Assembly: GCA_964187785.1 (NCBI GenBank)
Contig: OZ076409.1
Location: 7,318,001-7,382,000 of the forward strand
Direction of reading: 5' to 3'
Source: Amphiscolops sp. MND2022
Lineage: Eukaryota
Length of the DNA: 64,000 nt
The notes under the pieces were generated by a model. The model did no database searches and was not told the origin of the DNA. It worked only from the letters and a program-made list of their open reading frames with translations. This document shows positions 3,259-39,027 of the stretch, one piece after another (position 1 is the stretch's first letter; every line of letters begins with the position of its first letter). The position numbers and the translations under genes were made by a program.

Positions 3259-5703
3259 GTGGAAGTAGAGCCAGGGGCTGTACCCCACCGTGAAGGTGCA
3301 CGACGAATGTCACCTGACAAGGTAGAACGTGCCAACCAGGAAGTTCGTGACTTGCTACCTTTGGGAATGATACAACCTTCTCTATCCCCTTGGATGAGCG
3401 GTATTGTCATGGTCAAGAAGAAGAGTGGTGAGTTGCGATTCTGTTGTGACTTTCGATCACTTAATGAAGTGACCATCAAGGACGCATATCCTCTGCCACG
3501 CATCGACGAGAGTCTATCCCGGTTAGGTAAGGCCAAAATCTATACCAGTATCGACTTAGCATGGGCATTCTGGCAAATTCCTGTCCGAAAAGCTGATCGC
3601 CAAAAGACTGCCTTCGCTTGTGAACTTGGACTATTCGAGTGGCGGCGCATGCCCTTTGGTATGTGTAATGCTTCAGCAACCTTTCAACGGGCAAAAGCGC
3701 GAGCGCTACAGAGAATTGTGAATCGTGAAGGAAGTATGGTAATGGCTTATATCGATGACATCGTGATTCCTACCGAGACCATTGACGACCATATGGATAG
3801 ACTGCGTGAAGTATTCCTATGCCTGCGCGACGCCGGTTTCAAGATGAGGGTCTCCAAGTGTTATTTTATGAAGTCAGAGATCAAATATTTGGGCCGAGTG
3901 GTATCCGCAGACGGTATCAAGCCAGATCCAAAGGCTGTCACCAAGCTAAAAGACTGGGATATCCCACGAACCAAAACTGAACTGCAAAGTTTTCTGGGTT
4001 TTGCCAACTACTACCGCGATTTTATTCCCTGGCTGGCAAAATTGGTTGCCCCTCTACACGCAATGACGGGCACAGGCTCTCCATTTTTGTGGGGGGAGGA
4101 GCAGCAACGAGCCTTTAACAGCATCAAAAAGGCGCTAATGGAAGCCACTGCTCTGGCAAAACCCGACACTGAAGGTGAATTCGTTGTAGACACCGATGCC
4201 AGTGGCGTAGCCATATCAGGTATTCTTCACCAATAGCAAGGACCACCTGAGAGTCGCAAGCTGCGACCGATTGTATTCGGAAGCAAAAAGTTGACCTCTA
4301 CGCAGGCCAAGTATGGAGCCCCGAAACTGGGAATGTACGCTGCATACTATTTCATCTTGAAGAACCACAGTTATCTCTGTCCACGGAAATTCACACTGAG
4401 GGTCGACAATCAGGCCCCCTCATGGCTAAAAACATATTCGATGGACCAGGCGATCATTGGTCGATGGATCGTGGCTCTCGAAAAGTACCATTTCAGCATT
4501 GAGCATCGATCCAGAACACAACATCGAAATGCCGATGGCCTTAGCAAACGAACCAACGACTATAAAAAGCATGAGAAACAACTGAAAGGTTTACCTGCAA
4601 TTGCCGACAAATGGATTTTCCTGTCACAAGAGGAGTATGACAAACTCCCGCTAGCCCCATGGTTTGATGTCCACGGACGTGTGATACCAGATCACCCTGA
4701 ATTGTCTACACACTTGCAGAGATTGGCTAGCCAACGCTCACCCGAAACTACGATAACTGCTCCCGCACGGAAGAGCGGACAATACAAACAAAGTGCAATC
4801 AAACGCGACAAAGCAATGAAAGCACCTTTACCCACACTGCCAATTCCCGAATTGGCAATGCCTGCCGAGTTCTATCCCGAGTATCCTGAGGATTGGTTGG
4901 AATTAACCGAAGAATATCAACGGGACTACTTGCTTCCCACACATGCTGCCAACGTGCCATCAAGAACTACCTACCCGCTGACTGGGGAGGAAAAGCAAGC
5001 AACTGACACCGCGCCTGAGTATGTGAAGCAGATGGCGTTCGTGGTTAACAGCGTATCAATGGAACTGCATGAACAAGCAAACACAATTCATGGGTTAAAG
5101 CTGCTAGCACAAAACCGCGATGTTCACATTTTGGCTATCAAAAAGTTGGTAATGCAAGAATCAATAGACCAAGACATCTTTCCCGAGAACGTGCGCGCCT
5201 TTGCCAGGAATTACTACAAACAGAAAAAGAACCTCCTATTAGTTAACGCCAACGAGATATTGTGTGTAAAGTATCCCAAGAGCCAGAGAGCGCTGCACGA
5301 ACGCCCATGCATGATTGTAATGCCCCAATTGTATCAGCACGAAATCTTGTTCAAGGCCCACGACGCTATGGGACATTAGGGTATCGCAAAAGTCTTGGCA
5401 AGAATACAAGAACGCCACACTTGGCCAGGCATACGCCGCACCATTGCGCAATACGTCAGCCAATGCAAAACTTGCCAACAAGTACGCGATAAAAACGGTG
5501 ATGTACGATTTCACTTGAAAAACATCCAAAGTGGCTACTTCAACGAGCTGGTTCAATATGATCATTTAAAGATCTGCCCCTCCGACGATGGCAATACTGG
5601 AATCTTGGTTATTATTGACCATTTTTCCAAGCTCGCGGAAGCAGTACTGTGCAGCCACGACGAATACGACGCAGCGACCACTTCGAAATTATTGTTGCAA
5701 AAG
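3259..5703 (+). pseudogene. pol: Reverse transcriptase, RNase H and truncated integrase
   Basis: ORFs 3259-4236, 4291-5379 and 5395-5703 are separated by in-frame TAG stops; LRFCCDFRSLN, YIDD, DTDASG and HHCC motifs present. Confidence 0.92.
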
Positions 5704-6076
5704 TCAGAGATCGCTTCGTTACTTTTAAACTTCTGGTATTTTGATATCATGCATTATCTCGAGAACCGCTGTTTTTCGCAGAAAGTGTTCAGCACAAACT
5801 TTGCCCCTTTGATTCTGATCTCTGACTTTTGAAATTAAAACATTTTCTGAAAAGGCTCTCTGAAGAATTTACACCGCAAAATGATCAGGCTATGCATAAT
5901 GTTCAATTTTTACTCCGTAAAATATTGCTTCGACGAAATTACAAGTGTTCAATTTCCACTTGGTTAGATGAAAACAAGTTTTAGTACTGATCTCTTTTGT
6001 ATGCCAAACTATACTCTTTCAAAATGGTAGCAATAATGGTTCCGTAACAGAACTAATCTAATACACATATGTGTAT

Positions 6077-6732
6077 AACAAGCTGGGACAGGCTTAAGTC
6101 GGCGCCATATCTAAGGCTCAAAAATAGCAAAAGGACTTCAAAATGTATTGGTGAATTGGGGACCCTTTTTTGAAAAAACTTTTTGAAAGAAAGTCTCATA
6201 ATGCCGAAAAATGTGAAAGGGGCCCTTTAGACTTTCTCAACATCCAGTCTGTTGCAAAAGTCCAAAAAATTGAAGGGGGGACCAAACACTCGAAAACTCA
6301 GAACCTCGTCCAATACAAAAAATGAAACAGACGTTCAGAACCTCGAAAACATATTAGGGATCCCCCTTTGGCTACCTGGGTGTTTTTCAATAAGATTTTT
6401 TTCTGCACTATGAGACTTTTTTTTGAAAATTTTTGGATTGCACCAAAGGATCTCCCCTTCAGTTGTTGCGATAATTTGCATCAGAATGGATGCTAGAAAA
6501 TTCCAAAGGGTCCCCCTTTTATAATTTTCGGCACTGTAACTGTTGAAAAATCTCATTTTTTAATTTTTTTTCGATTGTTTTAAAGTCTCCACAGGGTCCC
6601 CTCCAAGTTTTTTTGATATTTTGCATTAAACCGGAGTTTCAAAAAACCCAAAGCCCCCCCTTTTTACAATTTCAAAAGCTTTGCGCTTTTTGATCCTCAG
6701 ATATAGCGCCGACTTTGGCCGTTCACGGCTTG
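6077..6732. mobile_element. Non-autonomous Helentron-family repeat with a 3'-type end at both termini in inverted orientation
   Basis: Left end aacaagctgggacaggcttaagtcggcgccatatctaaggctcaaaaa; right end gatatagcgccgactttggccgttcacggcttg. Both match the 3' end of the Helentron at 40725-40754. Confidence 0.7.
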
Positions 6733-6784
6733 ATAAGTTTTTGGTACCCTATACATTTCCTTTCTCATTGATAACAGCCAAATA

Positions 6785-7051
6785 CTAAATATTCAATGGT
6801 GACTGAATCATTTCAGGCTGTTGGAAATGCCCTTGAACGTTTTGATTTTTGGCTGACCTTTGCAGGGCCTGAGAGCCAGAGATCAAGCTGGTTCCAGTGG
6901 AGCAGTGCGCGTAGCTTGCCATCTGGTCTTCTCGTCTCTGCAGTTGCGAGAGAGTCGCGTCTACGTCACTAGTCGCCTCTTCGGGTTTCCGGGAATTGAC
7001 CAATCCACGCTCAGAGTCACTGTCGAACACTTCATCCAGAGTAATCACTGT
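6785..7051 (-). CDS. Candidate terminal exon of an unidentified host gene
   Basis: Acceptor ttcatgtgcag, then an open frame TVITLDEVFDSDSERG...QSPLNI-stop; higher GC than the flanks and not a recognised repeat. Confidence 0.3.
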   Translation of the reverse strand, partial: TVITLDEVFDSDSERGLVNSRKPEEATSDVDATLSQLQRREDQMASYAHCSTGTSLISGSQALQRSAKNQNVQGHFQQPEMIQSPLNI

Positions 7052-7119
7052 CTGCACATGAAATTGAAACAAAACTTCAATCATATCCCCAAAACATTTT
7101 GATTCGTTCTTCTAATCTA

Positions 7120-9328: not shown

Positions 9329-9543
9329 AAACAAGCCGAGACCGGCCTAAGTCAGCGCCATATCTAAGGATCAAAAATAGCAAAAGGACTTCAAAATGTC
9401 AAAGTATTGATGAATTTGGAACCTTTTTATAAAAACAGAAGTTTTGAAAAAAACTCGCAATGCCGAAAAAACTGAAAGGGGGACCCTTTGGGATTTTTCA
9501 ACATCCAGTCTGTTGCAAAACTCCAAAAAAGTGAAGGGGGACC
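9329..9543 (-). mobile_element. 3' part of a HINE copy interrupted by the LTR element
   Basis: aacaagccgagaccggcctaagtcagcgccatatctaagg is the reverse complement of the family 3' end; the element resumes after 23180. Confidence 0.75.
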
Positions 9544-11087
9544 TGTCGCAGGCGGCCGCCTGCGATGGCAATTGGTACTCTGTGGCATATGACTACAGCA
9601 AGGCCCTACCCGGAACGGTCCCCCTTAATTGAGGAAAATAACGAAGAAGTTTGAAACTTAGTGTAAAACTAACCATTTTGCAAAACTATTTTCCATGTAT
9701 TAATGCCCTTAAAATACGATGTTACTTTTATTCAGTTACTGTATTATTGATTTAATACATTGCATTATGTAAAGTTGATTAACAGCATTAATAATTGGAC
9801 ACCAAGGCGTACAGGAGGAGGAAACGAGTTCAAGTGTTTTCTCTCCTGTCGCCGAGGACGGCCAGTCCAATTATTAAACTGACCAATCAGAGTGCAGTGT
9901 TCATTAAATTAATCCATTCTAGTACGGCGCGGCTTTGTACAAGCGCCGTACTCGGCTTTTGTTCGTATATTCGCTTAGTGCTTAGCTGTGATTAAAAGGA
10001 CTGCTGGTCCAACTAGCCATGCGTTGCTTCAAATAAGCCATTATTTCAGGCCGTCCACGTCTATTTGGACGCCAAGGACGTATTTTCTCTGTGCCTTAGA
10101 AATGATGAAATATACCATGAAATGTTGCTATTTAGTATGTATTTAGCCTGCTTGGCTAAAACACCACTCTATTTATTAAAAAACATGAAATTTGTTGTAC
10201 ATGTAAATGTATGAAGTGTTGAATTGATGATGCTATGTTAAGGACTCAGTGTCCTCTTAAACAAATCAAGCCGACAGGCTTTGAAGTCTAATTTTAGACC
10301 ACTATGTGATGTCATGTTGCTATATATAGCAGTTACTGTATTTAGATGGCAGTGAAGGCTATTTTTAGAATGTGACCCCCATAATATTGCGTGTCATGTA
10401 AACTTGAACTATATATACTGCGGACCCTAGGTCCCAAAGACAATGTTACCTGTTATTGTTACAATCAGTTTGTTGGAATACTCAAACTCTGTTTGCAAGC
10501 CTAAGGAACTAATTCAAATTCTTACCTCTTGCAATAAACTCTTATGCCTTCTACAAGGAGACAGAAAGCAAAAGCTAGAAAATCCAGAGAAATGGACATA
10601 TTGTCCGATATGGATAATTTAGACGTGATGATTGGGAATGAAAACCCTTTAGAAAGAGAGTTAGCAGGTGTAATAGACCAATCTTCCGTCCACGGCGACA
10701 TGGAAATTGGTAGCCATTCAAGAAATGACTTTAGAGATTTCATACATGAAAATGAGCCTCATGGTCAAAATGACATAAGACAGTCCTTTGAAACTTTCTC
10801 AAACGAATTTAATCTTAGGTTGTCCCAGGAAATGGATTCTATGATGGCTATGGTTCACGGTCAAATAAACAGAGCAATTAGCACTGCTATAGCGGAGAAG
10901 GTGATTCCAGAAATACAAAACATTGTGAGTTCTATGTCGTCTTCAGGGAACAGGGACACTGAGGCCAGTACGTCCCCTAGTAGTCAGGAGAATAGGAATG
11001 ATTTATCCGGCTTAAGAACTAAGATATTGAAAAAGGACTCACGGTCCATGGGCGACTTAAGAAACGCCGCGGAACGTGGCTCTTACA
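9544..11087 (+). repeat. 5' LTR (1544 bp)
   Basis: Starts tgtcgcagg and ends ctcttaca. It looks identical to 21637-23180 by eye, and the ORF track gives identical translations. Confidence 0.96.
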
Positions 11088-13894
11088 AGGTGACAGGAGT
11101 GGGATACGAACCCACGCATCCGAAGATACTAGGGGACGTACTAATAATTGGACTAATGTTCCTCCAAAGGAACCACACTGTCCTGGACATGCGCCAAGGT
11201 ATACTCAACTTTCCTTACTTCTCGATGCAACTCAAGACGGCTGACCATAAATACTCAAATGTTTTGGAACCCATCCTCAACCCTGAGGATGTCACAATTC
11301 CGCCCAATGACCATGTAGTCATACCCATTCAATCACAAATTTATGCAGAAAATGCAGTTACGGGTATATTGCAACCCAGCGATCTTCTGCACGAAGAAGG
11401 CGACATAACCTTCTGTGCCGCCATAGTCACGCTACATGAAGGGGCTATGAGAATACACGTTAACAATTTCACTGATCAACCCTATAAAATAAAGAAAGGG
11501 ATGCACATTGCAAACTTCTCAGTGATGACCCCTGAACAGATGAAACACGTCAGGCCAATAGACCCAGTGTCCACCTGGCACTTACTGAATGAAAATGAAG
11601 ATGACGCTATTTATTATATAAGTAGCCTTCTTAAAGCTAACAGAAATAATGACCAATACGAACAATATTGGTTCCCCACGCCTGAAAACCCAGGGGACGA
11701 AACGACTCATACCCCAATACAACAAAGAATTCTCAAAGAATTACGAAATCTACAAAGTTTAGAACAACTCAACCCGCACGACGATGCGGAATCTCGTCGA
11801 AAATTCCTCAGCAACTTTGATTGGAAAGACTCAATGTTACAACAACATGAAATCAGACAAATAGAGACTCTATTAGTGGAATTCCATGACATCTTTGCAC
11901 GCCATAGATTTGACATAGGCGTCAATGAGGAATTTACGGTCAAACTGACCCCAAAAGACGAATCACCTGCCTACAGTCAGAGCCTACCTACCCCAGTCAA
12001 CCTCAAAGAGGACATATTGGTCGAACTGGCGTTACTTCATAAATATGGTATTATAACGACATTACCATTCTCAAAGTATGCCAGTCCCATCTTCGCGCAG
12101 AAAAAACCCAATGGGAAATTGAGACTGTTGGTTGATTTGAGGAAAATAAATAATCTCATCTCAGACGATTATATCAACAACAATCACCCAGTCAGTACCC
12201 TAACGGATGCGGCACAACATATGGCAGGCAAAAAGCTCTTTTGCAAACTCGACTGTTCCCAGGCTTACCACTGCCTACCCATGGCGGACCAGAAATCGAT
12301 TGAAATGCTGGCCTTTAACTTCGCCAGCAGAACATTTGCATATAGAAGATTAGCCCAAGGACTCAGTAGAGCCCTGTCGGCCTTCTCCAGTTTTATAAGG
12401 GAATATTTGGACCGTGTTATAAAAGCAGACCAATGTGCTCAATATGTGGACGATATCGGCGTCGCGGCGACAGACGCTAACCAGCTTATCGTCAACTTAA
12501 GAGCAACGTTCCAATGTATCAGAGAAGCAGGATTGAAATTGTCCATGCACAAGTGCCATTTCGGTGCTACTGAAATTGACTTTCTTGGGAGAACCATTAC
12601 ACCTGAAGGCGTAAAACCCCAAAAAGAAAGAATCACTAACTTTTTGGAAAAGACGAAATTCCCAAAGTCCAAGAAGGCCTTACAACGCTACCTTGGTTTC
12701 CTCAATTATTACAGGAATTATATTCCAAGGCTATCCGAAAAACTAGTTCCCTTCTTCCAATTGCTCAAAAAAGATGAAAAAGTACTAGTAACGCAAGAGC
12801 TAGTTGAACAATTTAATGAGATCAACCGCGATTTAGACCGATGTAGCCAATTGGCGTTGAAACAACCTCTGCCGAACAAACAACTGGTCCTCATGACTGA
12901 CGCAAGTTTTACAGCAGCCGGTTACGCCATATTGACCGAAGACGACCCAAACCAAAAATACACTTCTGCTAAAAAGTCCTATGCACCGATTGCATATGGA
13001 TCTAAGACTTTCACGCCTTCTCAGCTCAAAATGTCGATATATGCAAAGGAATTCCTAGCTATATATTATGCATTTAAGGAGTTTGGACATATCTTCTGGG
13101 GAACACCTCATCCCGTGATTATCCTCACAGATAACAAATCGGTCACAAGGTTCTTCCAGACAAAGATAATTCCACCGCCCCTCTGGAATGCTTGTGATTT
13201 TGTCATTCAATTCAACTTCATTATAGCTCACATTCCAGGCAAAAACAATACAGCGGCAGACTACTTGTCCCGTATGGAAATGGACCCTAATGAAAAGTTA
13301 GTCCTGAAAATACGTGCAGACGTCGAGACCCGACCAATTGAAGTCAATGTTCAATCAGCGGGAATATCTGAAGAAGAGCAAGTCTTTTTTACTGAAGCAG
13401 ACGATGAGACAGAGCAACAAATTTGGGAACGGAAACAACAATCCAAAAGGGGCCTCATAGTCCCTGAGGCAGTAATCCAAATTGACGCTATATCAGAAAA
13501 TACCGTCGAAGAGATCACTAACTTCACACAGAAATTAAGAAGAACAAATCAGATACTGCTTGAACAATCCAGAGACCCGATTCTCCTCCAACTGAGGGCG
13601 AAACTTCAAAATGAAGAATACTCTGAAGAAATCCTTCAACAGGATATTCGGTACAAGTATTACTTGAACAACATAGACAGAATAGTCCTCAAAGACGAGA
13701 TAGTGACGCGACAGTACTATGATGAAACTGGACAGGTCAAATACCATCAAATCTTATTGCCAAAGCATTTACTCAAAGAATTATTACAAGCAATACATGG
13801 CACAGCACATCGACACCCGGGCATTTCTAAATGCCTTGGCATTTCTAAACCACCTTGGCATTTTCTTGTCAAAAGTATTACTACCCAGGAATAG
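10544..13894 (+). CDS. pol: Internally deleted Gag-Pol: LTR-encoded N-terminus, tRNA-derived linker, protease C-terminal remnant, dUTPase-like spacer, RT, RNase H, start of integrase
   Basis: 1116-aa ORF with LIIGLMFL (protease tail only, no DS/TG), LRLLVDLRKIN, YVDD, MTDAS and IHGTAHRHPG; no capsid or zinc-knuckle region. Confidence 0.9.
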   Translation: MPSTRRQKAKARKSREMDILSDMDNLDVMIGNENPLERELAGVIDQSSVHGDMEIGSHSRNDFRDFIHENEPHGQNDIRQSFETFSNEFNLRLSQEMDSMMAMVHGQINRAISTAIAEKVIPEIQNIVSSMSSSGNRDTEASTSPSSQENRNDLSGLRTKILKKDSRSMGDLRNAAERGSYKVTGVGYEPTHPKILGDVLIIGLMFLQRNHTVLDMRQGILNFPYFSMQLKTADHKYSNVLEPILNPEDVTIPPNDHVVIPIQSQIYAENAVTGILQPSDLLHEEGDITFCAAIVTLHEGAMRIHVNNFTDQPYKIKKGMHIANFSVMTPEQMKHVRPIDPVSTWHLLNENEDDAIYYISSLLKANRNNDQYEQYWFPTPENPGDETTHTPIQQRILKELRNLQSLEQLNPHDDAESRRKFLSNFDWKDSMLQQHEIRQIETLLVEFHDIFARHRFDIGVNEEFTVKLTPKDESPAYSQSLPTPVNLKEDILVELALLHKYGIITTLPFSKYASPIFAQKKPNGKLRLLVDLRKINNLISDDYINNNHPVSTLTDAAQHMAGKKLFCKLDCSQAYHCLPMADQKSIEMLAFNFASRTFAYRRLAQGLSRALSAFSSFIREYLDRVIKADQCAQYVDDIGVAATDANQLIVNLRATFQCIREAGLKLSMHKCHFGATEIDFLGRTITPEGVKPQKERITNFLEKTKFPKSKKALQRYLGFLNYYRNYIPRLSEKLVPFFQLLKKDEKVLVTQELVEQFNEINRDLDRCSQLALKQPLPNKQLVLMTDASFTAAGYAILTEDDPNQKYTSAKKSYAPIAYGSKTFTPSQLKMSIYAKEFLAIYYAFKEFGHIFWGTPHPVIILTDNKSVTRFFQTKIIPPPLWNACDFVIQFNFIIAHIPGKNNTAADYLSRMEMDPNEKLVLKIRADVETRPIEVNVQSAGISEEEQVFFTEADDETEQQIWERKQQSKRGLIVPEAVIQIDAISENTVEEITNFTQKLRRTNQILLEQSRDPILLQLRAKLQNEEYSEEILQQDIRYKYYLNNIDRIVLKDEIVTRQYYDETGQVKYHQILLPKHLLKELLQAIHGTAHRHPGISKCLGISKPPWHFLVKSITTQE
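11088..11132 (+). other. Extended primer-binding site: 45-nt complement of a tRNA-Leu 3' half
   Basis: The reverse complement CTAGT-ATCTTCGGAT-GC-GTGGG-TTCGTAT-CCCAC-TCCTGTC-A-CC folds as variable arm, perfect 5-bp T stem, acceptor strand and discriminator A73. Confidence 0.9.
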
Positions 13895-15552
13895 CAAAAC
13901 ACGTCAAAAAGTGGGTAGAAGGGTGTCAAATATGTGCCAAGGACAAGAGAGTCCCCAATGCTGCAATTACACCTGAATTGCTAAATTTGCCTGAATGGGA
14001 CCTTGGCCCAGAAGATGCCATGCAAATTGATTTGTTACCAAATTTACCAATTAGTGGCGGATACCAGACAGTGATGACAGCAATAGATGTATTCTCACGA
14101 TATCTTTTCGCCTACCCGCTAATTGAGGCAACAGCCGCAAATGTAGCCAAGGTGATAATTGATATAATGACGAAACACACTTATTTACCGACAACTCTCA
14201 TCACAGACAAGGGGTCCGCATTTACTTCAACAATTTTGGCAGAAATTACTGCAATATTGGGCATAACACTCAAATGCGCAACTACAAAGCACCCGCAAAC
14301 TATTGGCAAACTTGAGAGGACTCACGCCTCTTTGAAGACTAATTTGAAAATGACCTCAGGGGAATATCGCCGTCAATGGCATAAATATTTGCCGCTGGCT
14401 GTGCTCAACTACAACACTACTTATCATTCGAGTATTGGATGTGAGCCTAGCAAGGTCTTTCACGGACGAATTCCCTATAACGTCCTTGATCATAAATTGG
14501 GAAATAATCCTAATAAAAATTCCCTACCAACAACTGAATTTGCGGAAGAATTACAACAGAGGACGCAAATCCTCATTGATCAGACGAAGAACAATATCAT
14601 GCAGTCGTATTTAAAGTACAAGGAATACTACGACCGCAAGGCCAAAGCGGCTCCGCTACAAGAAAAGGACTATTGTTTTGTTCTTCAACCAAAAGCGGAT
14701 AGTCAAGGATCAAAAATACCCTTTAGGGACTACAGATGGACTGGACCCTTTGTTGTTCAAAAAGTCCTACCAAACAATAATTATATAGTGCGTCGTTTAA
14801 ATACGAACAAAACGCAAATCCTACACCGAATCAGGCTCAAAAAATTTGTCCCAAACGCCCCATTAGAAGACAAATATAAAGAAGAGAAACTACAGCCCGA
14901 CGAATCAATAGTAATACCGCAAGACGACTTATATACCATTTCATGGGAAGCGGACTTTGAGTACGAGCTGTTTGAGCCGGGAAAGAATGATTGGACGGAC
15001 GCGGCCACGCGCCTTCCACAGGGCGCCACGAGCGGCGACGTAGACTATTACGTCACCGACAATGAATGCAGCAGCGAAGAAAGGAACGAAAATGACGTCA
15101 TTGAAAACGAAGTAAGGACGAGTGCGTCCGATGGCCATGAAATGACGTCCACTCGGGACGAATCGACTGCCAAGCCGCAAAATGAGAATAACGTCACCGA
15201 AGATGAAATAAGGACGCGTACGGCCACTAGCCGAGATACACTTACAACGCGTGATGAAAATGACGTCAACGACTATGCAGCAAATGATGAAAAACGCAGC
15301 GAAACTGAAAGGCCGAATACGGCTACTAGCCGAGACAACCGAAATTTTACCGATGCCCCTACACACCTACCGAATGAAAATTATGATGATGTACGAAACT
15401 CTCCCAATAGAGGGGAGGATAATTCCGTGCCCGGAATATCGGACAATGGGAAAAATACGGAAAATGAGAATGAAACGTCTAGCCCTAGAGGAGGGAAATA
15501 TAATCTTCGACCTAACCCCACCCCCAACTACACTGATGAATATAGATACTAG
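13855..15552 (+). CDS. Integrase (C half of HHCC, DDE core, GPY/F motif, acidic repetitive tail), frameshifted from pol
   Basis: CQIC, QIDLL, AIDVFSRY, TDKGSAF, QTIGKLERTH, WTGPFVV; tail ends GGKYNLRPNP. Confidence 0.92.
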   Translation: MAFSCQKYYYPGIAKHVKKWVEGCQICAKDKRVPNAAITPELLNLPEWDLGPEDAMQIDLLPNLPISGGYQTVMTAIDVFSRYLFAYPLIEATAANVAKVIIDIMTKHTYLPTTLITDKGSAFTSTILAEITAILGITLKCATTKHPQTIGKLERTHASLKTNLKMTSGEYRRQWHKYLPLAVLNYNTTYHSSIGCEPSKVFHGRIPYNVLDHKLGNNPNKNSLPTTEFAEELQQRTQILIDQTKNNIMQSYLKYKEYYDRKAKAAPLQEKDYCFVLQPKADSQGSKIPFRDYRWTGPFVVQKVLPNNNYIVRRLNTNKTQILHRIRLKKFVPNAPLEDKYKEEKLQPDESIVIPQDDLYTISWEADFEYELFEPGKNDWTDAATRLPQGATSGDVDYYVTDNECSSEERNENDVIENEVRTSASDGHEMTSTRDESTAKPQNENNVTEDEIRTRTATSRDTLTTRDENDVNDYAANDEKRSETERPNTATSRDNRNFTDAPTHLPNENYDDVRNSPNRGEDNSVPGISDNGKNTENENETSSPRGGKYNLRPNPTPNYTDEYRY

Positions 15553-15716
15553 TCAGAAATGTTAAATTATGTCCCTACATATTTTGTAGCCTAATAAGGC
15601 ATATTTTCTACTGGGACTATTCTGACTTTTTGACTCAACAGACTAACTATATAAATACAAACAGAATCAAAATATACAAAACAAAGTCTAAAATGGCAAA
15701 TATACATTATGTACAT

Positions 15717-18700
15717 TTAGTCTTTAGAGCATCCTTCCTTTAAGTCTTCGACGGTCTTTGAAACCTCGGTGGAAGAAATATTTCCGAAGAGAGTAAGCTC
15801 TTGAGCACCCCCAGATCCGGGAAGAACATTGCGGCCCACTGTGGACGAGATGGAAGAGGAACGTGAAGGGATGGTAACTACCTTTACAGGGGTAGGCTTG
15901 AGGCCTTTAAAAGTTGTCATCAGACTCTTCTGGAAAGAGGAACGCCCAAAGGTATCTACATGCGTCCAAGGATCGCCAGCAAATTGCCCAGAATTGAACT
16001 GATTGTCCAAACTACGGAATTTACCAAGGGAGCTCTCTGAAGTGCAATAGGCTATAGCTTGCGAACAACTAGCTAAATAAGACTGGGCAGGTAAGAGCAT
16101 GTCCACAAAACGGCACTTAGGCTTGGAGGAATCTACTTCATGGAACTTGATAGCCGGAAGATCAGCACCGCCCTCGGTCAGGCAAAGGCAACTAAGTCGG
16201 AACAAGTGAAATAAATTCTTGCGAGTACGCATGGCTGGAAGAGCGACGAGGAAGCTGACCACATCTTTCATTTGCCCTGGCATGTCCTTGAACTGAGGGA
16301 AATTAGCCCTGAAGTAATCGACAAATTCCAGATATTCGTCTCGGTAATCAGGCTCCAAGGACCGTTGAATCCATCCACGCAGGCAGAAGGTCTGGAATAA
16401 AGCACCGAAACAAAAGGTCACTTGATCCATGGACAGAGAAACCAGTGTATGTGGATCAAAACAAGCTAGACCATGGACAATATCGGCGGTGAGATGGACG
16501 TCACGTAAGAACGTCTCAAGTAAAAAGACGAAGAATCCTCTGGCACTTGTTGCAAAGCTGTCTCTTTCAGTGGCGAGTAAAGCGCTGAACTCACTGGCAC
16601 TGATATTGGGGTCAATTCGGGACTGTCGGACCTTGGCTTTACAAGAGGCATCTATGTCAGTAACAAGTTTCAGCCGGTTCAAGAAATCTCGGCACGAAAG
16701 CAACTTCAGGTCGTCAGGGCACAAATAAAGTAAGCCCGTCCAGTTCGTGTCGTCAGGGATACACTTGGGGAGAACTGCGCGAGAACAAAGCTTTCGCAGG
16801 AAACGACAAAACTGCCCGAAAGTGAAGAAGGAAGCATCGGACTGCCCGGACAGACTGCGTTCGAAGCACTTCACGTCTAAACACCACACATATAGCAGGA
16901 TCTAAGAGAAAACAGAAACGACCAAAAGAACCATACTTACAATCGCGGACTACGAGGCCGAAGATCTCCAATTTCACAGTGAAGTAAGCATCCATCAGGA
17001 TCATCCACTCAAGACTTTGCGGCTGAAAGGAAAAGAAAGTGAAACGCCAGGCAAATGACCCAACTTGGACCCTAAAGACTACCACATTTAGGTCCTGAAT
17101 GGAGAAACAATTATGGGGTCAAAATCAGGGGCACGACTCTGATACCTAACCGTAGTATCAAAAGGAAATTAACCAAATAATAAGAGTCTTACCCTGCCCC
17201 GGACTCCCTGCCAGGATTGGGAAGGAGCTTCTCGAGTTATGAAGTCGCGGATGTTAGGCCACTGTGCAATCATCTCACTACAAATGGCGGGGATGCTCTG
17301 CAAGTCCAAATCACAACTGGTAATGGCCTGGAATACAAATGTTTGATTAACCATATGCAAATCAGACTCACTCCACTCTTAGCCCGCATGTCCAACTATA
17401 CATCTGGGTAACCTTAATCAAGGAAATAAGGAGAGAAGGATCTAACCGCTGAAAGGTTAGGGCAGTCCAACATCCATAGTTGACTAAGTGCGTTGATGAG
17501 GAAGACAGTTAGGTATTTGAGTCGGGAGAAGATGTCAATTTTCCCAAAGAAGTCATCATACTTCTGATGCATGAGACGCGGCAATGACAGGACCTCAAAT
17601 CTGAACGGGTACTGGATGGAGAATTTAAATAGCTTGCACTGGTCAAGCGTTTGCAGCACAGCAGCGGGACATCCGGACACGCTTACCAAGTTGGGCCCTG
17701 AGGAGATGAAGGATAAGACCCGAGAAATTGACCCGAAGAAATTTCCAGGGTACGCTGATGCCAAGGGATGTCTACACAGTTCCACGCGTTGAACAACGTC
17801 CTCCCGCCAGAAACGTACGGCCATATAGCAGAAACCTTTGCGACTAGTGAACTCCAATGAGTAGGCGCCCTCCGTGGAGATCTGACACGCGATGTCTTCA
17901 GTACAGCGCAAGAAGATGTGATGGAAGATTTTCTAAAAATAAAATCAATCGCATTAGAACCGAATACTTAGGAATCTTACCAGGCCACGAAGATGGAGAC
18001 AATACTTACAGTGAGGTTGTCCGCTCGCCAGTCAAAATCAGAGAAGAATCCTTGATGACTAGTAAACGTTCTGAATCGGGTCCACAGGGTACGCAGGAGC
18101 GCTAAGTCTCCGCCATGAGACACAAAGAGTCCGATCAGGGATATCTGTGTAGTCGTTCGGAGCTCATCTGGACTGGAGGATCCTTCTAAAGTGGCAACGT
18201 AGTCATCATAAAAAGGAAACTTGTCTCCAATGTCGACGAGAGGAGCATCCATGAAAAGGGGTTTCTCCTTTTCCAACTGTAAAGGTGTTAACACATATCC
18301 ATCTTTATCCCGGACTTGGTGGGTCACTCTGCCGGTTGTGGCATCAATTTCGCTGAGGTGTTCGTACCTCCACCTTTGATCACGACGTAAATGTCCCTGA
18401 GTCTTATAGTGGCGGAGGATCTCCCTGGCTCCTTTTGAATAAATTGATATGTTTGTCTTAAATATCTGGCAGTAAAATTTGTAACGGTTGTGTAGAGGAT
18501 CGAGGGGCCCCGAGACAAAGGTTCTTGTCCATTGGATGCCTTTAAAGTAGGCATCCTTCATGACTTTGCCCGGTTTGCAGAGCATCTTTCTTCGCTTCCG
18601 AGGAGGACTGGGGTTGGACGTAACAGGGGATTGCGCCTGTGTGAGAGATGCTAGAGGACGGTAATCTGCGCTGCTGTAACTACTGCCTGAATTTGGGGTC

Positions 18701-19731
18701 GCGACTCTAGACGGACCCGGCTCGTCCAATACAGTGGCGAGAGTTTTAGAAGCTGAGACGAAGGGAGAACTGCCTTCAGATCCAGTTTCGATATTTCGAA
18801 AGTCCTCGTCAGTGTCTATAGCCCCGCTGGTATATCCATCACTGTCAGCAGAAGCGCTTTCTCCTCCAGAACTAGATTCATGTCCTGGTCCGGGTGTGGC
18901 TGATCGACGAGGGATGTTACGAGATGGCCTTTTGTTTAAAGGGATCCCCTCAGTCACCTTTACCAACAGTGATTTCATCATGTGAAACGATGATAACACT
19001 GACTCGTCAGCTATGGTTCGTAACACAGCGTGCACTTGGCTTTCACTGAAAGCAACTGTTGAGTGTCCTGGAGGCAGTTCGACGGGAACGTTCTTGCTGA
19101 AATATTTGCGGATCACTTCTCTACCGCTTGGAGACAAATGTCTTTCACTTGAAAACACTTTGGTCCGGTAAGCTGCTTGTTCAGCATCGCTGTTTCCCGA
19201 AGAATGCTGCAATTCGTCATCAAAAGCTGGGAACGCGTTTGGATCAAAGGTAAATCCGCCCAATTTGGTGGTGGGCAAATCGACTCCTGAACTGTCGTAC
19301 AATTCTCCCTGATCACTATTGTCAGAGTACAATCCCCTTCGTTCGTGAGTGTCCTGTTGTGTTTCTTCAATAACGGCCGTTGTTGATCGGGTCTCTCCTG
19401 CTCTCTCTAAAGGATCAGATTCAGAAGCCTTGATAGACTCACGGTTGCCTTCTCCTGCCTCAGGGTCAGGAGGGACTGCTGGGGGGTTTGAAAATTGAGA
19501 AATTGTTCGCTCAATGAATGCAGTGACACTCTCATCGGTTGAGTTGGACGCCTGGGACTCAGGCCTGATTTCCTTCTCGGGCACATTCTGGACTTGCGGC
19601 GGTTCTTGTTCTTGCCCCTGACTAACGGGGACTGTTACAGGGATGGTGGATTCTGGCAGATCCTCTTCGTTGGACATATCTAAACGAAAAGATACAACTT
19701 TTAGCGGGTAACTTCCTGAGTATGAATCCAT
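15717..19731 (-). CDS. Spliced antisense accessory gene (~1190-1220 aa): zinc finger plus degenerate hAT-transposase-like fold
   Basis: Exons 19731-18010, 17932-17447, 17327-17193, 17022(or 17094)-16941 and 16876-15717 join via GT-AG introns into one open frame of 1195 codons. Motifs resembling hAT blocks: FYCQIFK..LRHYKTQGH, YSLEF..MAVRFW, PAICSEMIAQWPNIRDF, LACFDP, KNLFHLFRLSCLCL. Confidence 0.72.
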
Positions 19732-20903
19732 GAGACCGCTTTACAAATCTTCTAGAAGTGAGATTGGAACACAAGACATGAAGTCAACGTTCTTTAAAAC
19801 AAATGGACAGGAAGTATTACGAACGTGAACAGGTCCTGATCAAACCCAATTCCGTTCAAAAGAAAAAGACCAGATAGCTAACCTGAAGATGCAAGGAGTT
19901 TGAATCGAATGTTGTCTGGGAGGGCAATTGATTGGAAGTCAAATAAACCCAGAAGGGGCTGACACTGCTATGAAGATGGGGAGGCTTGAATTCCAGAGGG
20001 ATGTCCGTCACCAAGGGGTAGTTGTCTATTGTCCGTGTACGGCCAACTGACGAGGGGGAAGATAACTCACTGACAAATGTGGTGATAATGAAAGAAGATG
20101 AACTAAAAGACTAACAAGTGACTAAATACAAAGTGGATAAATATGTTGGTGATTAAATACGAAGAAGAAAGAGTAATATGATTGCAATTGAATGTAAAAG
20201 AATTGAAAAGGCGAATCGGCAATGTGACAAGACGTCAAGATTGGAGTTCGTGGCTATACAGTTTGGTGTCAAATTTACAGTTATGTACAAGTTACGTCAT
20301 TATGTGGATAGAGACTGCCAGCTATATCTACATTGTCTTTAATTATTTCGAAAACTTTGTTATTTTACAAAATTGTCTCATAATTTTATCTTATTTTATT
20401 TCATTTTATTTTATTTTTCATTTTTATTTGTTTTCAAGGTCATTTTATATTATTCCTTATATGGAATTACGACTTTGGGGAGCCATTCTGAATCGATGAA
20501 GAATTTACTGCTCTCCTATTGGCTACTCAGGACCTGACGGACGGCGTGGCTTTCTGCCATATCTTCACCCACTTGAGAATTTTCAAGTGGTTGATGAGTG
20601 TTAATAAACACTTGAGAGATCACTCCTAAATTGGAAGTGTTGACAAAGTTGATGAAGAACAACGAGGCCGTCGGCAACTATATCAAAGTGGAATTGGCGG
20701 CTAGTTAAAAGGGGAAAAGATGGAAATTCGTTGTGAGATATTCAGCAGTCACGAGGAATGAAAACCCCGGGAAAACTAAACGCAAAGCCCGCTAGTCTGC
20801 CGAGACGGGATCCGTCATTATTCAAGTTTCAATCTCAAAAGAAGTTGCCCCTAAAGTCAAAATTCTTCACAAAATTGCGAAAAAACTGATAAAAGACAGA
20901 TAT

Positions 20904-21725
20904 ATGTCTGACATTTCTGAGACGTTCCCAATGGATTTCCAAGGCATCGTCCGATCAGAAGGGGAACCAGATATAATTTACATCTCAAGTGACGAGGAGG
21001 AAAGGATGGATTCAGTCTGCGGAGACTCAGTGGACGATCTGTACTTATCGTCAGAGGAAGAATTCACAGACGTTGAGATTATGGCCAGATGTATAGAAAG
21101 GCAGTTGACTGAACCCATCACCATTCCCAATGTTGGGACTTCAAGTACTCAAGCCAGATGCGGGACGCCCAGACCTAGTCTTCCTCCATTCCCGACTTTC
21201 TCTCAGCAGTTCTTCAATCTGGGTTCAGGAAACGGACCAGTGGGACGAGATATGCGAATCAAATCCAATCATCCCATCAATATTTGCAGGGACTTACGTC
21301 CAATGGTCGACACACCCATGTCGCCTCCCCCAGAGGACAGGGGGCCTTCACGGGACCAGCAAACGCCGGCTTGCTCTTATTCTTCAGATCATGTGTCAAT
21401 AGAATCAGTTTCGAATCACTTTGACGGCATGGCTTTGTCAGGAAATACCAGTTTGGCAGGCTGCTCCGACTGTGTCATTTGCGGCAAGTCAGTCCTACAG
21501 ATCCAAACGGAAGCAGTAAACGATTACATCGACAAAACTGTAGTGATTGGTGAAACTCTTGCGGAAACGGAGAGAAGAAAGAGAGCCTTTCTGGACGGGA
21601 TGGCAGCAGGCACATTTTTACTCATGCCAGGGGGAGTGTCGCAGGCGGCCGCCTGCGATGGCAATTGGTACTCTGTGGCATATGACTACAGCAAGGCCCT
21701 ACCCGGAACGGTCCCCCTTAATTGA
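20904..21725 (+). CDS. 3' accessory ORF (273 aa) overlapping the PPT and U3; SIM-like motifs and CxxCxxC
   Basis: ATG-initiated intact ORF with IIYISSDEEE, LYLSSEEE and CSDCVIC; the last 89 nt lie inside the 3' LTR. Confidence 0.7.
   Translation: MSDISETFPMDFQGIVRSEGEPDIIYISSDEEERMDSVCGDSVDDLYLSSEEEFTDVEIMARCIERQLTEPITIPNVGTSSTQARCGTPRPSLPPFPTFSQQFFNLGSGNGPVGRDMRIKSNHPINICRDLRPMVDTPMSPPPEDRGPSRDQQTPACSYSSDHVSIESVSNHFDGMALSGNTSLAGCSDCVICGKSVLQIQTEAVNDYIDKTVVIGETLAETERRKRAFLDGMAAGTFLLMPGGVSQAAACDGNWYSVAYDYSKALPGTVPLN
21629..21636 (+). other. Polypurine tract
   Basis: agggggag immediately 5' of the TG that starts the 3' LTR. Confidence 0.8.
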
Positions 21726-23180
21726 GGAAAATAACGAAGAAGTTTGAAACTTAGTGTAAAACTAACCATTTTGCAAAACTATTTTCCATGTATTAATGCC
21801 CTTAAAATACGATGTTACTTTTATTCAGTTACTGTATTATTGATTTAATACATTGCATTATGTAAAGTTGATTAACAGCATTAATAATTGGACACCAAGG
21901 CGTACAGGAGGAGGAAACGAGTTCAAGTGTTTTCTCTCCTGTCGCCGAGGACGGCCAGTCCAATTATTAAACTGACCAATCAGAGTGCAGTGTTCATTAA
22001 ATTAATCCATTCTAGTACGGCGCGGCTTTGTACAAGCGCCGTACTCGGCTTTTGTTCGTATATTCGCTTAGTGCTTAGCTGTGATTAAAAGGACTGCTGG
22101 TCCAACTAGCCATGCGTTGCTTCAAATAAGCCATTATTTCAGGCCGTCCACGTCTATTTGGACGCCAAGGACGTATTTTCTCTGTGCCTTAGAAATGATG
22201 AAATATACCATGAAATGTTGCTATTTAGTATGTATTTAGCCTGCTTGGCTAAAACACCACTCTATTTATTAAAAAACATGAAATTTGTTGTACATGTAAA
22301 TGTATGAAGTGTTGAATTGATGATGCTATGTTAAGGACTCAGTGTCCTCTTAAACAAATCAAGCCGACAGGCTTTGAAGTCTAATTTTAGACCACTATGT
22401 GATGTCATGTTGCTATATATAGCAGTTACTGTATTTAGATGGCAGTGAAGGCTATTTTTAGAATGTGACCCCCATAATATTGCGTGTCATGTAAACTTGA
22501 ACTATATATACTGCGGACCCTAGGTCCCAAAGACAATGTTACCTGTTATTGTTACAATCAGTTTGTTGGAATACTCAAACTCTGTTTGCAAGCCTAAGGA
22601 ACTAATTCAAATTCTTACCTCTTGCAATAAACTCTTATGCCTTCTACAAGGAGACAGAAAGCAAAAGCTAGAAAATCCAGAGAAATGGACATATTGTCCG
22701 ATATGGATAATTTAGACGTGATGATTGGGAATGAAAACCCTTTAGAAAGAGAGTTAGCAGGTGTAATAGACCAATCTTCCGTCCACGGCGACATGGAAAT
22801 TGGTAGCCATTCAAGAAATGACTTTAGAGATTTCATACATGAAAATGAGCCTCATGGTCAAAATGACATAAGACAGTCCTTTGAAACTTTCTCAAACGAA
22901 TTTAATCTTAGGTTGTCCCAGGAAATGGATTCTATGATGGCTATGGTTCACGGTCAAATAAACAGAGCAATTAGCACTGCTATAGCGGAGAAGGTGATTC
23001 CAGAAATACAAAACATTGTGAGTTCTATGTCGTCTTCAGGGAACAGGGACACTGAGGCCAGTACGTCCCCTAGTAGTCAGGAGAATAGGAATGATTTATC
23101 CGGCTTAAGAACTAAGATATTGAAAAAGGACTCACGGTCCATGGGCGACTTAAGAAACGCCGCGGAACGTGGCTCTTACA
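21637..23180 (+). repeat. 3' LTR (1544 bp)
   Basis: Direct repeat of 9544-11087, followed by TSD GGACC. Confidence 0.96.
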
Positions 23181-23402
23181 GGACCCTTTCTTGGAAAAAA
23201 AATTAAACAAAAATCGCACAGTTCCCGATATTGTATGTTACGCGGGAAACCTTTTTGGTTCAGTTCCTTGGGCCAACAGGTACATTTTGTAGAACTTTTG
23301 GTAGAACAATTTGGTTACTTCAGGTGTATCGAAAAAAACACTGACCAAACAAAAGCCATGACTATAGTCGACTCTTTTCTCTAAAAAAGCGCCGACTAAA
23401 AA
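23181..23402 (-). mobile_element. 5' part of the HINE copy interrupted by the LTR element
   Basis: Ends gactatagtcgactcttttctctaaaaaagcgccgactaaaaa, the reverse complement of the family 5' end (compare 52131-52170). Confidence 0.78.
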
Positions 23403-30004: not shown

Positions 30005-33000
30005 ATGATTAATTTACCCCAAGAAGCTCTCCGAATACTTATCGATATTGCCAGTTCAAATCTTAACGACCAAGGTAATCATGTGGAAACACTTGTTTTT
30101 TTACTTGCCATCAAAGAGGATGTGGATATTTACACAATCACAGATGTCATCCTTCCTACTCAAACAAGTAGTGGAGTGTTTGTTGAAGATCATGGCGTCA
30201 ATAATCAGGATTCTGCTGCTTTTTTGCACAATCTATGTAATCAAGTTCCAACTAAATTTGTAATCGGCTGGTTCCATACACATGTCCGTGGTACACCATT
30301 GATGCTGAGTGCTGTTGATTGTCATACTCAGTTCTTGTACGAAACAGCAGTGTTCAATGGAATCAAAGCTTTTGTGTTGCATCTGCCATCCCGGTCCCTT
30401 GAATGCTATCAATTGACTGAAACCGGTTTGAATGCTTTACGTTTGTGTACGCTTCAGTACCCCTGGAAGGCAACCATCCAGCACCCCGAATGCTTTCAGT
30501 CTTCATTTTATTTCTCCTTGAAACATCTTCTGAAAATTGGAGACACTTCTGTTACATTTATTGATGCCACAGAAAGCAAGCCTTTTTCTCAACCACTTGG
30601 CACTTACGAAAAGTTTCTATGTGGCAGTAAACTTCCGACAACCAAAGTCTTGAAAAGCTGTCAACCTTCCTCCATTAATCAGACACCTGATTGCGCCTTA
30701 AAATGCACTTCTTGCGGAAAATCATTCCGAGATCTTCGAAAAAAGCGCAAGCATCTCAGCAGAACCAAATGTATTGAATCCGTCGCATCTAACAATGCAC
30801 TTTCCCAGCCTGTTCCACCGGTCGACCCCGTGAAATATCTCGAACAGCCTTGTGTGGGTTGTTCAACAATTTTCCAGAATCAAAAAGAAGCTTTTCAGCA
30901 TTTCTCTCGAAGCGCTTGTAGGACTTTGTACAAGACAGTTCTAGCACAGAGAAAGCGCTTGAAAAAGCAAATTTATGACAGAGCTAGAACTGAAAAAGAC
31001 ATTCGACAACCACGATCTGTCAAAATGATGACCAGTATTAGAAATAAAACTCAGTATGAAAAAAATCGGATGAAGTTGAAGAGAAAGTATGTTGTTTCGT
31101 TGAAAGATAAGTTGAAGAAGAAGTACCAAGATAAATTCAAGGAACAATTGAGATTGAAATACCTAATCCATTGCAAGGAAATTCGGAGGATGAAATATCA
31201 AGAAACCTTGCAGAGCAAATTGAAAAAAAAGTATCAAATGGATCTGAAGGAAGCACTCAGCCATAAGTACCGCCACGGATTGAAGGAGAAACTTCGTGTC
31301 AAATACCAGACGAAGTTGGAGGAATCTCTAAAAGTGAAATATCATGCTCTATTGAAGGAACCTTTGAGAAGGAAATACCAGACTTCTTTGAAGGAACCTC
31401 TGAAACTGAAATACCAGACTTCGTTGAAGGAACCTCTGAAACTGAAATACCAGACTTCGTTGAAGGAACCTCTGAAAATGAAATACCAGACTTCTTTGAA
31501 GGAACCTCTGAAATTGAAATACCGCGCTTCATTGGAGGAGCCTTTGAAAATAAAATACCAGGCTTCATTGAAGGAGCCTCTCCGGATCAAGTATCAGGAA
31601 TGTCTGAGAGAGCCCCTTCGCATTAAGTACCAGGAGTCAATCAAAGAACTTTCCCAACTGAAATATCGAGTCAAAAAGTCCACGAAGACGTTTGGTGAAC
31701 TTTTGAATGAATTCCGTCGAGGTATGTGTTTGGGCCTAACTTTTGAATGTATCTGCTGCGAACGAGTACTCTTCGAAAATGGTGTTGTTAAATTGTCCGA
31801 AAGCGCCTTTTCCCGACTTGACAAGCAATTAATTGCAAGAAGCATCAATTCTGAACTTCTTTCCGGTCCAAAGTTTTTGAGTCACTGCTGCCATCGAAAT
31901 TTACAAAAGGGTGAATTACCGAGCATGTCTGCTCAAAATAGTCTTACAATCGAGTCAATTCCTGAAGAACTTAAACTATCAGATTTTGAAATGCAACTGA
32001 TTGCTAAAGACCTTTTGTTCATGAAAATTTTCAATTTGCCGAAGTCACGCATGCCAGCGGTTAAGGACAAAGTTATAAATGTGCCTTTACCGCATACTGA
32101 TCTTGAAAATACAACAAAAATTCTTCCACGTAACTTAGACGATTCGCTGCTAGTCAACGTGCAATTCAAGCGATGCAAAGATTTCAAAAATGTTCATTCA
32201 GAAGCGCTTGTGCGTCCGCACATGTTGCTCAAGGCACTAGCGTGGCTGCAATCCAGCGGAAATCTTTTCTACAATGATGTTGTCCTGAATGAAAAGTTTT
32301 GTCTGGACGAAACTGCCCTTTTTGCAACCGATGAGCAGCCGGAAGACGACCAGGAAGCAGCTCAAACGAAAAACGAAGATAACTTGGACACATGTCTCAT
32401 TCCTCAGAACTCGGCTGCTCACGTGATTTCGAATTATGGTGTTGTCCGCAGAGTTGTCTCGGAAACTATTGTTGTCGCTCCAGGAGAGAACAAACTTCCG
32501 ACGAACTGGTTGGCTAATGTGGACTTCGAAGCCAAGTCCTTTCCTTGCTTTTTCCCGTCCGGAAAATTTACATTGAGTGATACCCGGGAGGTGAGAATTA
32601 GTTCGCAGCAATATTTCAGTCAGAGAATTATGAACAAAAACCCTCGTTTCGCTGAAGACAGTAGCTATTTGTTTGCTGCTCAGCAGCGAGTAGAAAGAGA
32701 ACAACTGGAACGACAATGCGATATTTTTTTTCGCAAAGGGAAAACAGAACGTTTGGATAATGACACCGTCAAAGTAAGCCAAGATGACATACAAACAGTC
32801 TTTCAGCGAATTCGTGGAACTAGTCAATACTGGAGGGTCGCTCGTAATGAATTAATTGCAAAAGTTAAGCAGCTCGGTCCTTTCCAGTACTTTTTCACGC
32901 TCTCATGTGCTGAAATGAGGTGGTCCGAGGTTTTCGCGACGATTCTGAAATCACAAGGACATACAATCAGCATTGAAACCAAGTTTGACCCAAATGGTAA

Positions 33001-38600: not shown

Positions 38601-39027
38601 AAGCCTGTTCGCGGTCGTTTCATTTTTCAACAACCACGCGCTCAAAGATATGCCGAGTACTATGACTTTTTCAATCTCTGGATGCAGTTTCAGTCTGTCG
38701 TCCTCCAAGCTAATCATCGGTTAGGTATTAACATTTCACTAGTATATAAATGTGTACTGCCTTTTCTTTTACCTATACTGTGTTTTAGGCAGAAAGGTGA
38801 TTGCAAATGGATAGAAACCCTGCAGCGTGTAAGGACTGCTTCGCTAACTGAAGATGACCATACCCTTTTATCATCTCTACAAGTACCTGACAACAAGCTT
38901 TCCCTAGCACCAGACGCTACCCGGATATTTTACACGAATGCCGAAGTGGATTCTTACAATAATGAGAAGCTGAATAGTTTACCTGGACAAATGTTTGTTT
39001 CTAAGTCTGTAGTTACCTCTCCAGTCG
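32276..39027 (+). repeat. Tandem duplication, 2 x 3376 bp (32276-35651 and 35652-39027)
   Basis: Constant 3376-bp offset between identical ORFs; GATGT at 32276, 35652 and 39028. Confidence 0.95.

Follow-up and report, generated by a model that had tools for sequence, protein, structure and literature searches.

An intron-containing antisense accessory gene in a Ty3/Gypsy-type retrotransposon family of Amphiscolops and its apparent exchange between element backbones

Retrotransposons with long terminal repeats (LTRs) are usually held to need just gag and pol. Additional genes that lie toward the 3′ end of a retroelement and act in the nucleus on element expression are known from retroviruses: HBZ of human T-cell leukemia virus type 1 (HTLV-1) is antisense and spliced, and Tas of foamy viruses is internally promoted. 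The passages of PMC7264820 and PMC11963269 considered here mention the regulatory genes of complex retroviruses and describe, for Tat-type Gypsy elements of plants, conserved antisense open reading frames (ORFs) between pol and the 3′ LTR. According to these passages, all or most copies of Retand, Grande (gene23), RIRE2, and PvRetro13 contain the antisense ORF, whose function is presumed to be regulatory. The Grande ORF is driven by a promoter of its own and yields a nuclear product, and the Retand product, presumed to bind DNA, has the transposase-named TRP28 domain (PF04195). In this study, an antisense gene of an LTR retrotransposon was analyzed in a 64,000-nucleotide stretch of the Amphiscolops sp. 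MND2022 genome (GCA_964187785.1, contig OZ076409.1, positions 7,318,001 to 7,382,000 of the forward strand; hereafter, the window). The gene lies on the minus strand at window positions 15717–19731, inside a Ty3/Gypsy-type element at 9544–23180, and further copies of the element were sought in the 1.07-Gb eukaryotic assembly.

As far as the plant Tat ORFs are described in the passages above, the gene in the window resembles them in its site, its orientation, and its presence in all or most copies. It differs from them in having four conserved introns, a zinc finger with an RNase-H-like core, a sense gene arranged head to head with it, and an apparent exchange of the cassette between elements. 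The word "intron" is absent from the main texts of PMC7264820 and PMC11963269. No match to TRP28 (PF04195) was found at E ≤ 1 in the exon pieces or in the exon-5 and exon-2 homologues; this and the other Pfam negatives below apply to one copy of Pfam, which may not include the newest models (PF27073 and the like). The parts of PMC5408684 and PMC8220671 considered here contain nothing comparable. In the literature searched, in part as excerpts and with subscription journals outside the scope, neither an LTR element whose antisense gene has introns and a transposase-like core, nor the exchange of such a cassette, nor conserved antisense Gypsy ORFs outside plants were found. An initial annotation, made from the letters of the window without database searches, had named no described Gypsy lineage with this architecture. 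Within the same literature, plant lineages with antisense ORFs do exist, and what remains of the statement concerns the introns and the transposase-like core. The likeness to HBZ and Tas is one of analogy: an additional gene, lying in the 3′ part of an element, may be expressed apart from gag-pol. There is no sequence or fold relation to them, the presumed promoter is internal instead of lying in the 3′ LTR, and the protein is four to five times larger.

I consider it the best reading, with a probability of roughly 60%, that this family of Ty3/Gypsy elements has an accessory cassette for a nuclear DNA- or chromatin-binding regulator, probably derived from a transposase, and that the cassette is exchanged among element backbones. 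The cassette would be transcribed from its own promoter, against the genomic RNA of the element. The introns may persist due to this antisense transcription, as the RNA that is reverse-transcribed is the opposite strand and never loses them. Since the gene has multiple exons, its expression must be independent of the genomic RNA. The product would no longer cut DNA; its likely ancestor would be a DNA transposase, for which the hAT type is the best, unproven candidate. It would act in trans for the element, most likely on element transcription or silencing, and deeply diverged versions of the cassette would be swapped by recombination between backbones.

The gene is composed of five exons between the integrase frame and the 3′ LTR (19731–18010, 17932–17447, 17327–17193, 17022–16941, and 16876–15717, with the stop codon at 15719–15717). 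The joined exons are 3585 nt in length and in frame, the sole stop codon is the terminal one, and the predicted product has 1194 amino acid residues. The initial annotation had proposed that five minus-strand pieces join through GT-AG introns into one frame, and this was reproduced. Intron 1 (17933–18009, 77 nt, phase 0) reads GTAAGT...TTTTTAG, and its position is kept in 9/9 copies. Intron 2 (17328–17446, 119 nt, phase 0) has the donor GTTAGA and the acceptor TTCCAG, intron 3 (17023–17192, 170 nt, phase 0) has GTAAGA and CTTTCAG, and intron 4 (16877–16940, 64 nt, phase 1) has GTAAGT and GTTTAG. In nine copies with four introns each, GT-AG was found exactly at the homology-predicted place in 35 of the 36 introns, the lone miss being intron 4 of copy C9a_55. 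This agreement of the aligned splice sites is far beyond chance. Related ORFs from databases cross the junctions in the same way. No gap interrupts the match of P0240 across exons 2 and 3, of P0018 across exons 3 and 4, or of P0008 across exons 4 and 5; introns 2, 3, and 4, respectively, are absent in their sources. P0277 has an in-frame insert of 26 residues precisely at junction 1, where intron 1 lies.

Exons 3 and 4 are kept at 39–67% identity in eight diverged copies, with identical borders. The initial annotation had left two acceptors for intron 3, at 17023 and at 17095. In the diverged copies, the homology of exon 4 begins at residue 781/782, GT-AG sites at offset 0 fit the short exon 4, and nothing corresponds to the 24 extra codons of the 17095 variant. 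Thus, the 17023 acceptor is favored over the one at 17095. Gene models were built for eight copies (C9a_55 was left out). Six of them are uninterrupted frames of 1185–1214 codons that start with MD(S/T/L)(Y/F)SGS and end with SSK(D/N); of the broken ones, C1_57 has a stop at the position of the start codon and C9b_54 is frameshifted. Downstream of the stop codon, the minus strand showed neither AATAAA nor ATTAAA in a scan of 12812–20338. The protein database searches found no full-length spliced prediction of the antisense protein.

Is the gene a fixed part of the element? Eight diverged copies, whose exon 5 is 53–80% identical to that of the window, were compared. The order of pol, integrase, and antisense exons 5 to 1 was found in all eight, and a sense frame beyond them (orfX, see below) in seven, none being found in C1_57. 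Among close copies, the 13 loci with integrase matches (99–100%) are the 13 loci with exon-5 matches (98–100%), the spacing being verified for one pair (1194 nt). Thus, no member of this pol-defined subfamily lacks the gene. The sibling copies therefore carry it at the same site, 13/13 close and 8/8 diverged. No stop codon interrupts 95 of the 107 scored exon-5 matches. Between subfamilies, the proportion of nonsynonymous differences (pN) is 0.09–0.33 for the whole protein, where that of synonymous differences (pS) is saturated at 0.66–0.83; for the structured part, pN is 0.05–0.29 and pS is 0.71–0.84. The ratio of the corresponding rates (dN/dS), a check that the initial annotation had suggested, is 0.02–0.07 where dS is computable. 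Judged from these alignments, the antisense gene is under strong purifying selection. A profile search collected 596 representative proteins at E ≤ 1e-3. The best identity of P0008 in the Amphiscolops genome is only 42%, so at least some of the relatives come from other genomes; none were found in the viral contigs or metagenome contigs searched with the family alignments. Around the gene, only short imperfect inverted repeats were found and none at the edges of the segment, in keeping with the initial annotation, which had seen no terminal inverted repeats there. The shared site, the selection, and the lack of bounding inverted repeats make a nested transposon, a passenger gene, and a noncoding antisense transcript all poor explanations. 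The comparison of copies thus supports that the gene is an integral, conserved part of the LTR retrotransposon, not a nested DNA transposon.

The behavior of the cassette goes beyond what the initial annotation had noticed. Between elements C4_54 and C8_53, gag-pol differs at 56 of 6500 sites (pS 0.04) and the region from orfX through the LTR at 124 of 2380 sites. The cassette between them differs at 1097 of 4284 sites, with a pS of 0.66 and 354 transversions. One end of it falls just within the 3′ terminus of the antisense gene and the other about 450 bp upstream of the gene's ATG, and it is about 25% diverged between elements that are less than 1% different in gag-pol. A like pattern was found for C5_80 and C10_78, with the right-hand edge at about the same place. 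A conserved block, present in all four aligned copies, marks this edge. The left edge is inside the coding tail of the gene, and its position differs between the two pairs. Hypermutation of a single type was ruled out as the cause of the divergence because all six substitution types are present (354 of the 1097 differences are transversions). In a small sample of 15 elements (105 pairs), the pol ends are at least 95% identical in 17 pairs, of which ten have an exon 5 below 85% identity, down to 63–64%. The simplest reading of these alignments is that recombination puts old, diverged versions of the cassette on young backbones.

The product is about 1190–1217 residues long across the family. 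Its N-terminal 390 residues, which the initial annotation took for disordered, are not uniformly so; they hold several conserved islands, and short acidic motifs are present in the N-terminal region. Conservation peaks at residues 391–450, where 67–80% of the columns are invariant in seven copies, and a basic, nuclear-import-like patch (SPPRKRRK) precedes this block. The block contains a C2H2 zinc finger, recognized in the alignment of copies, at residues 421–447 (C421, F424, H441, and H447; 18391–18471, minus strand). The pattern CxxC...HxxxxxH is present in nine of ten copies examined (three close and six diverged). The finger of the window reads CQIF, the change of Cys424 to Phe being private to this copy and one of six such amino acid changes in comparison with three sister copies. 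A weak, sub-threshold match to zf-C2H2_ZN292 (E 1.4e-3 to 2.4e-2) was obtained for nine of ten relatives, and no match to zf-BED. Thus, the BED/C2H2-like finger of the initial annotation survives as a C2H2 pattern of the family, with one cysteine mutated in the window, and the BED part is unmatched.

Exon 2 probably has an RNase-H-like core, judging from an AlphaFold model built from eight sequences (mean pLDDT, the per-residue confidence score, 55; 62–77 over residues 11–100). The order in the model is a helix, three strands, a helix, a strand, and a helix. The core is predicted at residues 598–672 (17639–17863, minus strand) as β1-β2-β3-α1-β4-α2, with YSLEFTSR as β1, FCYMAVRFWR as β2, VVQRVELCRHP as β3, NFFGSISRVLSFI as α1, and LVSV as β4. 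This low-confidence model puts the motifs where the initial annotation had guessed the strands of an RNase H fold. By the topology of the model, Glu601 lies in β1 and Ser660-Gly661-Cys662 follows β4, and these residues are conserved in 46 sequences. Since the conserved Glu601 and Ser660 would occupy the two aspartate positions of a DDE enzyme, both aspartates are judged absent, in agreement with the earlier suggestion that the catalytic aspartates were replaced. Exon 5 has an all-α C-terminal domain (exon-5 residues 1–293; 15996–16874, minus strand), which was modeled with confidence from 57 sequences as all-helical; over about 290 residues, the pLDDT is mostly above 90. No fold match of this domain was found in PDB or BFVD (the best E value of Foldseek in BFVD was 0.19).

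Hence the question of whether the gene is a hAT derivative. The order of a finger, a predicted RNase-H-like core, and a long all-α region fits that of hAT transposases such as Hermes and of the domesticated ZBED, FAM200, and DUF4371-type relatives. Domesticated hAT members also lose catalytic residues, and ZBED-type hAT-derived factors may offer a parallel to the proposed regulatory role. In a Foldseek search with the exon-2 model, chains of Hermes took seven of the first nine ranks (E 2.8e-3 to 1.3e-2). In a protein-language-model search, the nearest named clusters (scores of 0.78–0.84) carried DUF4371, the FAM200-ZBED5 RNase-like domain, the ZBED1 RNase-like domain, DUF659, and zf-C2H2_12, all rated as leads only. 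In contrast to hAT proteins, the antisense gene product is not detected by family, profile, or profile-profile comparison and has no detected dimerization domain. In contrast to hAT elements, the gene is inside a retroelement, without terminal repeats or an 8-bp duplication. Taken together, hAT descent has about even odds, and the label "disarmed hAT transposase" is weakly supported.

Several points weigh against the reading of an exchanged, transposase-derived regulator. The expression and splicing of the gene are inferred from sequence only, and the regulatory role is proposed by analogy only. Of the nine pairs that are at least 95% identical in exon 5, none is diverged in pol; thus, a free reassortment in both directions lacks support. 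As for the ancestry, all Foldseek matches to Hermes are above E 1e-3 and were obtained with a model of pLDDT 55. With VIA-align, the exon-2 core gave a generic RNase-H/ASKHA fold tied with many unrelated ones, with Hermes at rank 40. The C-terminal 385 residues had no structural match to Hermes or any hAT part; Hermes was also absent among the 50 matches listed in the wide VIA-align search with exon 5. No hAT-related Pfam family was matched at E ≤ 1 in the window pieces, the 57 exon-5 homologues, or the 46 exon-2 homologues, nor in ten exon-1 homologues. The hAT dimerization domain PF05699 was found in 0/57 exon-5 homologues at E ≤ 1; elsewhere in the genome, it gave 150 scored matches, all over the cut-off. 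Together with the lack of a fold match, this speaks against the dimerization-domain-like C-terminus of the initial annotation. DUF4371 (PF14291) has no match in this genome and none in the control genomes either. Searches of PDB sequences with three family profiles gave nothing (best E 0.16–0.6, unrelated proteins), and a search with exon 5 alone gave nothing meaningful. A comparison by hhalign with six intact hAT ORFs of the genome was at chance level (P 0.18–0.59); the non-significant aligned pieces were the CxxC and, in exon 2, α1 and β4 at the topologically expected place. In the ESM Atlas, no usable match to exon 2 by itself was obtained. Of the earlier idea that a class I element had recruited a class II transposase, the integral accessory gene remains; its hAT origin draws weak support from the Foldseek comparison and the order of parts, the sequence families and profiles being blank.

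Other explanations were compared with that of a regulator on an exchanged cassette. The protein might tether the integration complex to chromatin or DNA sites, as a targeting subunit separate from integrase. Targeting is known for Ty3, Ty5, and chromoviruses, and chromodomains and host tethers serve other LTR elements. The zinc finger, the inactive transposase-like core, and the position next to integrase suit this role, which I consider unlikely, as cassettes about 25% diverged are found beside integrases 98–100% identical. Any contact with integrase would then be confined to conserved surfaces. More generally, diverged cassettes beside near-identical integrase, orfX, and LTR make a version-specific match to these unlikely, and this tilts the balance toward a function on host factors or a conserved target, such as regulation or relief from silencing. 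A bolder form of the regulator reading can be entertained tentatively, with somewhat more credit than tethering. It says that a transposase-derived gene with introns acts as a trans factor whose ancient versions are kept as interchangeable cassettes in an arms race with silencing, orfX being a second player. In such an arms race, interchangeable versions on young backbones would resemble the surface and immunity cassettes of viruses.

The remaining possibilities have far less in their favor. If the cassette were a nested or self-mobile class II element and the mosaic a result of repeated insertions, the decoupling of its divergence from the flanks and the similar right edge in two pairs would be accounted for. 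This is very improbable, since no terminal inverted repeats lie at the edges, the site and orientation are constant in the 8/8 and 13/13 copies, the left edge is within the coding tail and differs between pairs, the aspartates of an active enzyme are missing, and none of 17 loci picked by the gene shows it apart from pol. An equally slim chance is given to a core that is still enzymatic, with Glu601 and Asp948 or Asp1012 as a variant active site for nuclease or strand transfer activity. Conservation of at least 90%, as such a site would demand, was found for E27 among 46 exon-2 sequences and for D140 and D204 among 57 exon-5 sequences. Nearly all sequences have Ser-Gly-Cys after β4, however, and no RNase-H-fold transposase is known to function without a carboxylate there. 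Least credible is a chance-captured host gene riding as a passenger, or an antisense transcript that regulates through double-stranded RNA and has an incidental frame. Gene capture by LTR elements and noncoding antisense transcripts are both known, according to the parts of PMC7264820 considered here. Such a passenger or transcript would hardly keep open frames with a pN/pS of about 0.05–0.1 across subfamilies at saturated synonymous sites, or introns and their phases, or have relatives in other genomes.

The preferred regulator cassette would have its promoter in the spacer between the two head-to-head accessory genes (19732–20795), which was delimited by the alignment and the identity profile. 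The sense frame orfX (20796–21725, plus strand) has 309 codons from stop to stop with the first ATG at 20904, and it is conserved in seven copies. It ends 89 nt into the 3′ LTR, and its C-terminus is strongly conserved. It has a CxxC and two acidic motifs rich in Ser, both conserved ([IV]x[LI]SSDEEE and LDLQLSSEDEE), which I take to resemble SUMO-interaction motifs. Its pN is 0.02–0.36 against a pS of 0.13–0.83. Since the conservation extends upstream of the first Met, the true start may be elsewhere, perhaps in a spliced exon.

The host element has a 5′ LTR (9544–11087) and a 3′ LTR (21637–23180) of 1544 bp each, both starting with TG and ending with CA; the ends were read off the sequence. 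The stretches 9535–11087 and 21629–23180 are 99.87% identical over 1553 columns. The target-site duplication GGACC lies at 9539–9543 and 23181–23185, and the polypurine tract AGGGGGAG (21629–21636, plus strand) abuts the 3′ LTR. A primer-binding-site-like stretch (11088–11115, plus strand) is the complement of the 3′ acceptor stem and T arm in a tRNA family of this genome; at 28 nt, it exceeds the usual 18-nt site. With up to two mismatches allowed, the genome has 174 occurrences of its complement, and the window site is matched with one mismatch. On contig 11 (about 5,999,000–6,107,500), the complement is part of a dense array in which tRNA-like 3′ halves follow one another in tandem at a spacing of about 200–800 bp. 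With domains assigned by Pfam from the frames of one copy, the N-terminus of gag is fused to pol at 10544–13894 (protease remnant, reverse transcriptase, and RNase H; RVT_1 1.1e-22 and RT_RNaseH 5e-17, with RT_RNaseH_2 also matched), and the integrase frame follows at 13849–15552 (rve 7.8e-11 and Integrase_H2C2 3e-6), both on the plus strand. The order of reverse transcriptase, RNase H, and integrase is that of Gypsy, and the assignment rests on this domain order. Thus, the LTRs, the GGACC duplication, the tRNA-complementary site, the polypurine tract, and the domain order indicate a complete Ty3/Gypsy-type insertion.

The start of the gag frame (Met at 10544) is held in the last ~545 nt of the 5′ LTR, and the 587-codon gag frame of intact relatives likewise begins within the LTR (e.g., C5_80, 5355–7115). 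As this start lies about 1 kb into the 1.5-kb LTR, the first ~180 codons are in both LTRs (10544–11087 and 22637–23180), with an AATAAA 5 nt ahead of the frame in each (10533–10538 and 22626–22631). The copy in the window is dead: most of gag is gone, a frameshift breaks pol, and the finger has a mutated zinc ligand. A deletion of about 2 kb directly 3′ of the primer-binding-site-like stretch joins the N-terminus of gag to pol, and homology to other copies resumes at 11144. In comparison with an intact relative, gag residues ~224–587 and pol residues 1–292 are missing. Pol is split into two frames, with integrase out of frame with the reverse transcriptase part, in contrast to the single 1773-codon frame in 10/13 subfamily copies. 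At 11088–11143, the over-long tRNA complement is directly followed by the deletion, which looks like aberrant reverse transcription with overcopying of the primer tRNA and a subsequent template jump.

Just upstream of the 5′ LTR, 9432–9629 contains a remnant of an orfX C-terminus (55% identical by tblastn), and the region 9330–9543 also repeats 6077–6283 at 82% identity. The element may lie within or next to what is left of a related one. Elsewhere in the window, 3382–5697 and 60597–63620 are two distant retroelement pol remnants, 22–29% identical to the pol of the family. A unit of 3.38 kb is duplicated in tandem at 32276–39032 with 99.94% identity, and a 36-bp tandem repeat of about eight copies (81–84% matches) lies at 31301–31581. 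The region 54001–64000 has a strong strand asymmetry, with a guanine-cytosine (GC) skew of −0.28 to −0.50, and a low GC content around a gap of 200 N (55584–55783).

In plants, conserved antisense genes of still open function have been described for a few lineages, and the present family is an unusually clear case. Its genomic candidates number in the thousands, other genomes have relatives of it, and DNA-binding and transposase-like parts can be recognized in its protein. If the transposase ancestry is true, a class II gene was domesticated by a class I element and not by the host. The exchange of the cassette would mean that accessory modules can have a far deeper history than the backbones that carry them, which bears on the classification of LTR elements by pol only and on their escape from host control.

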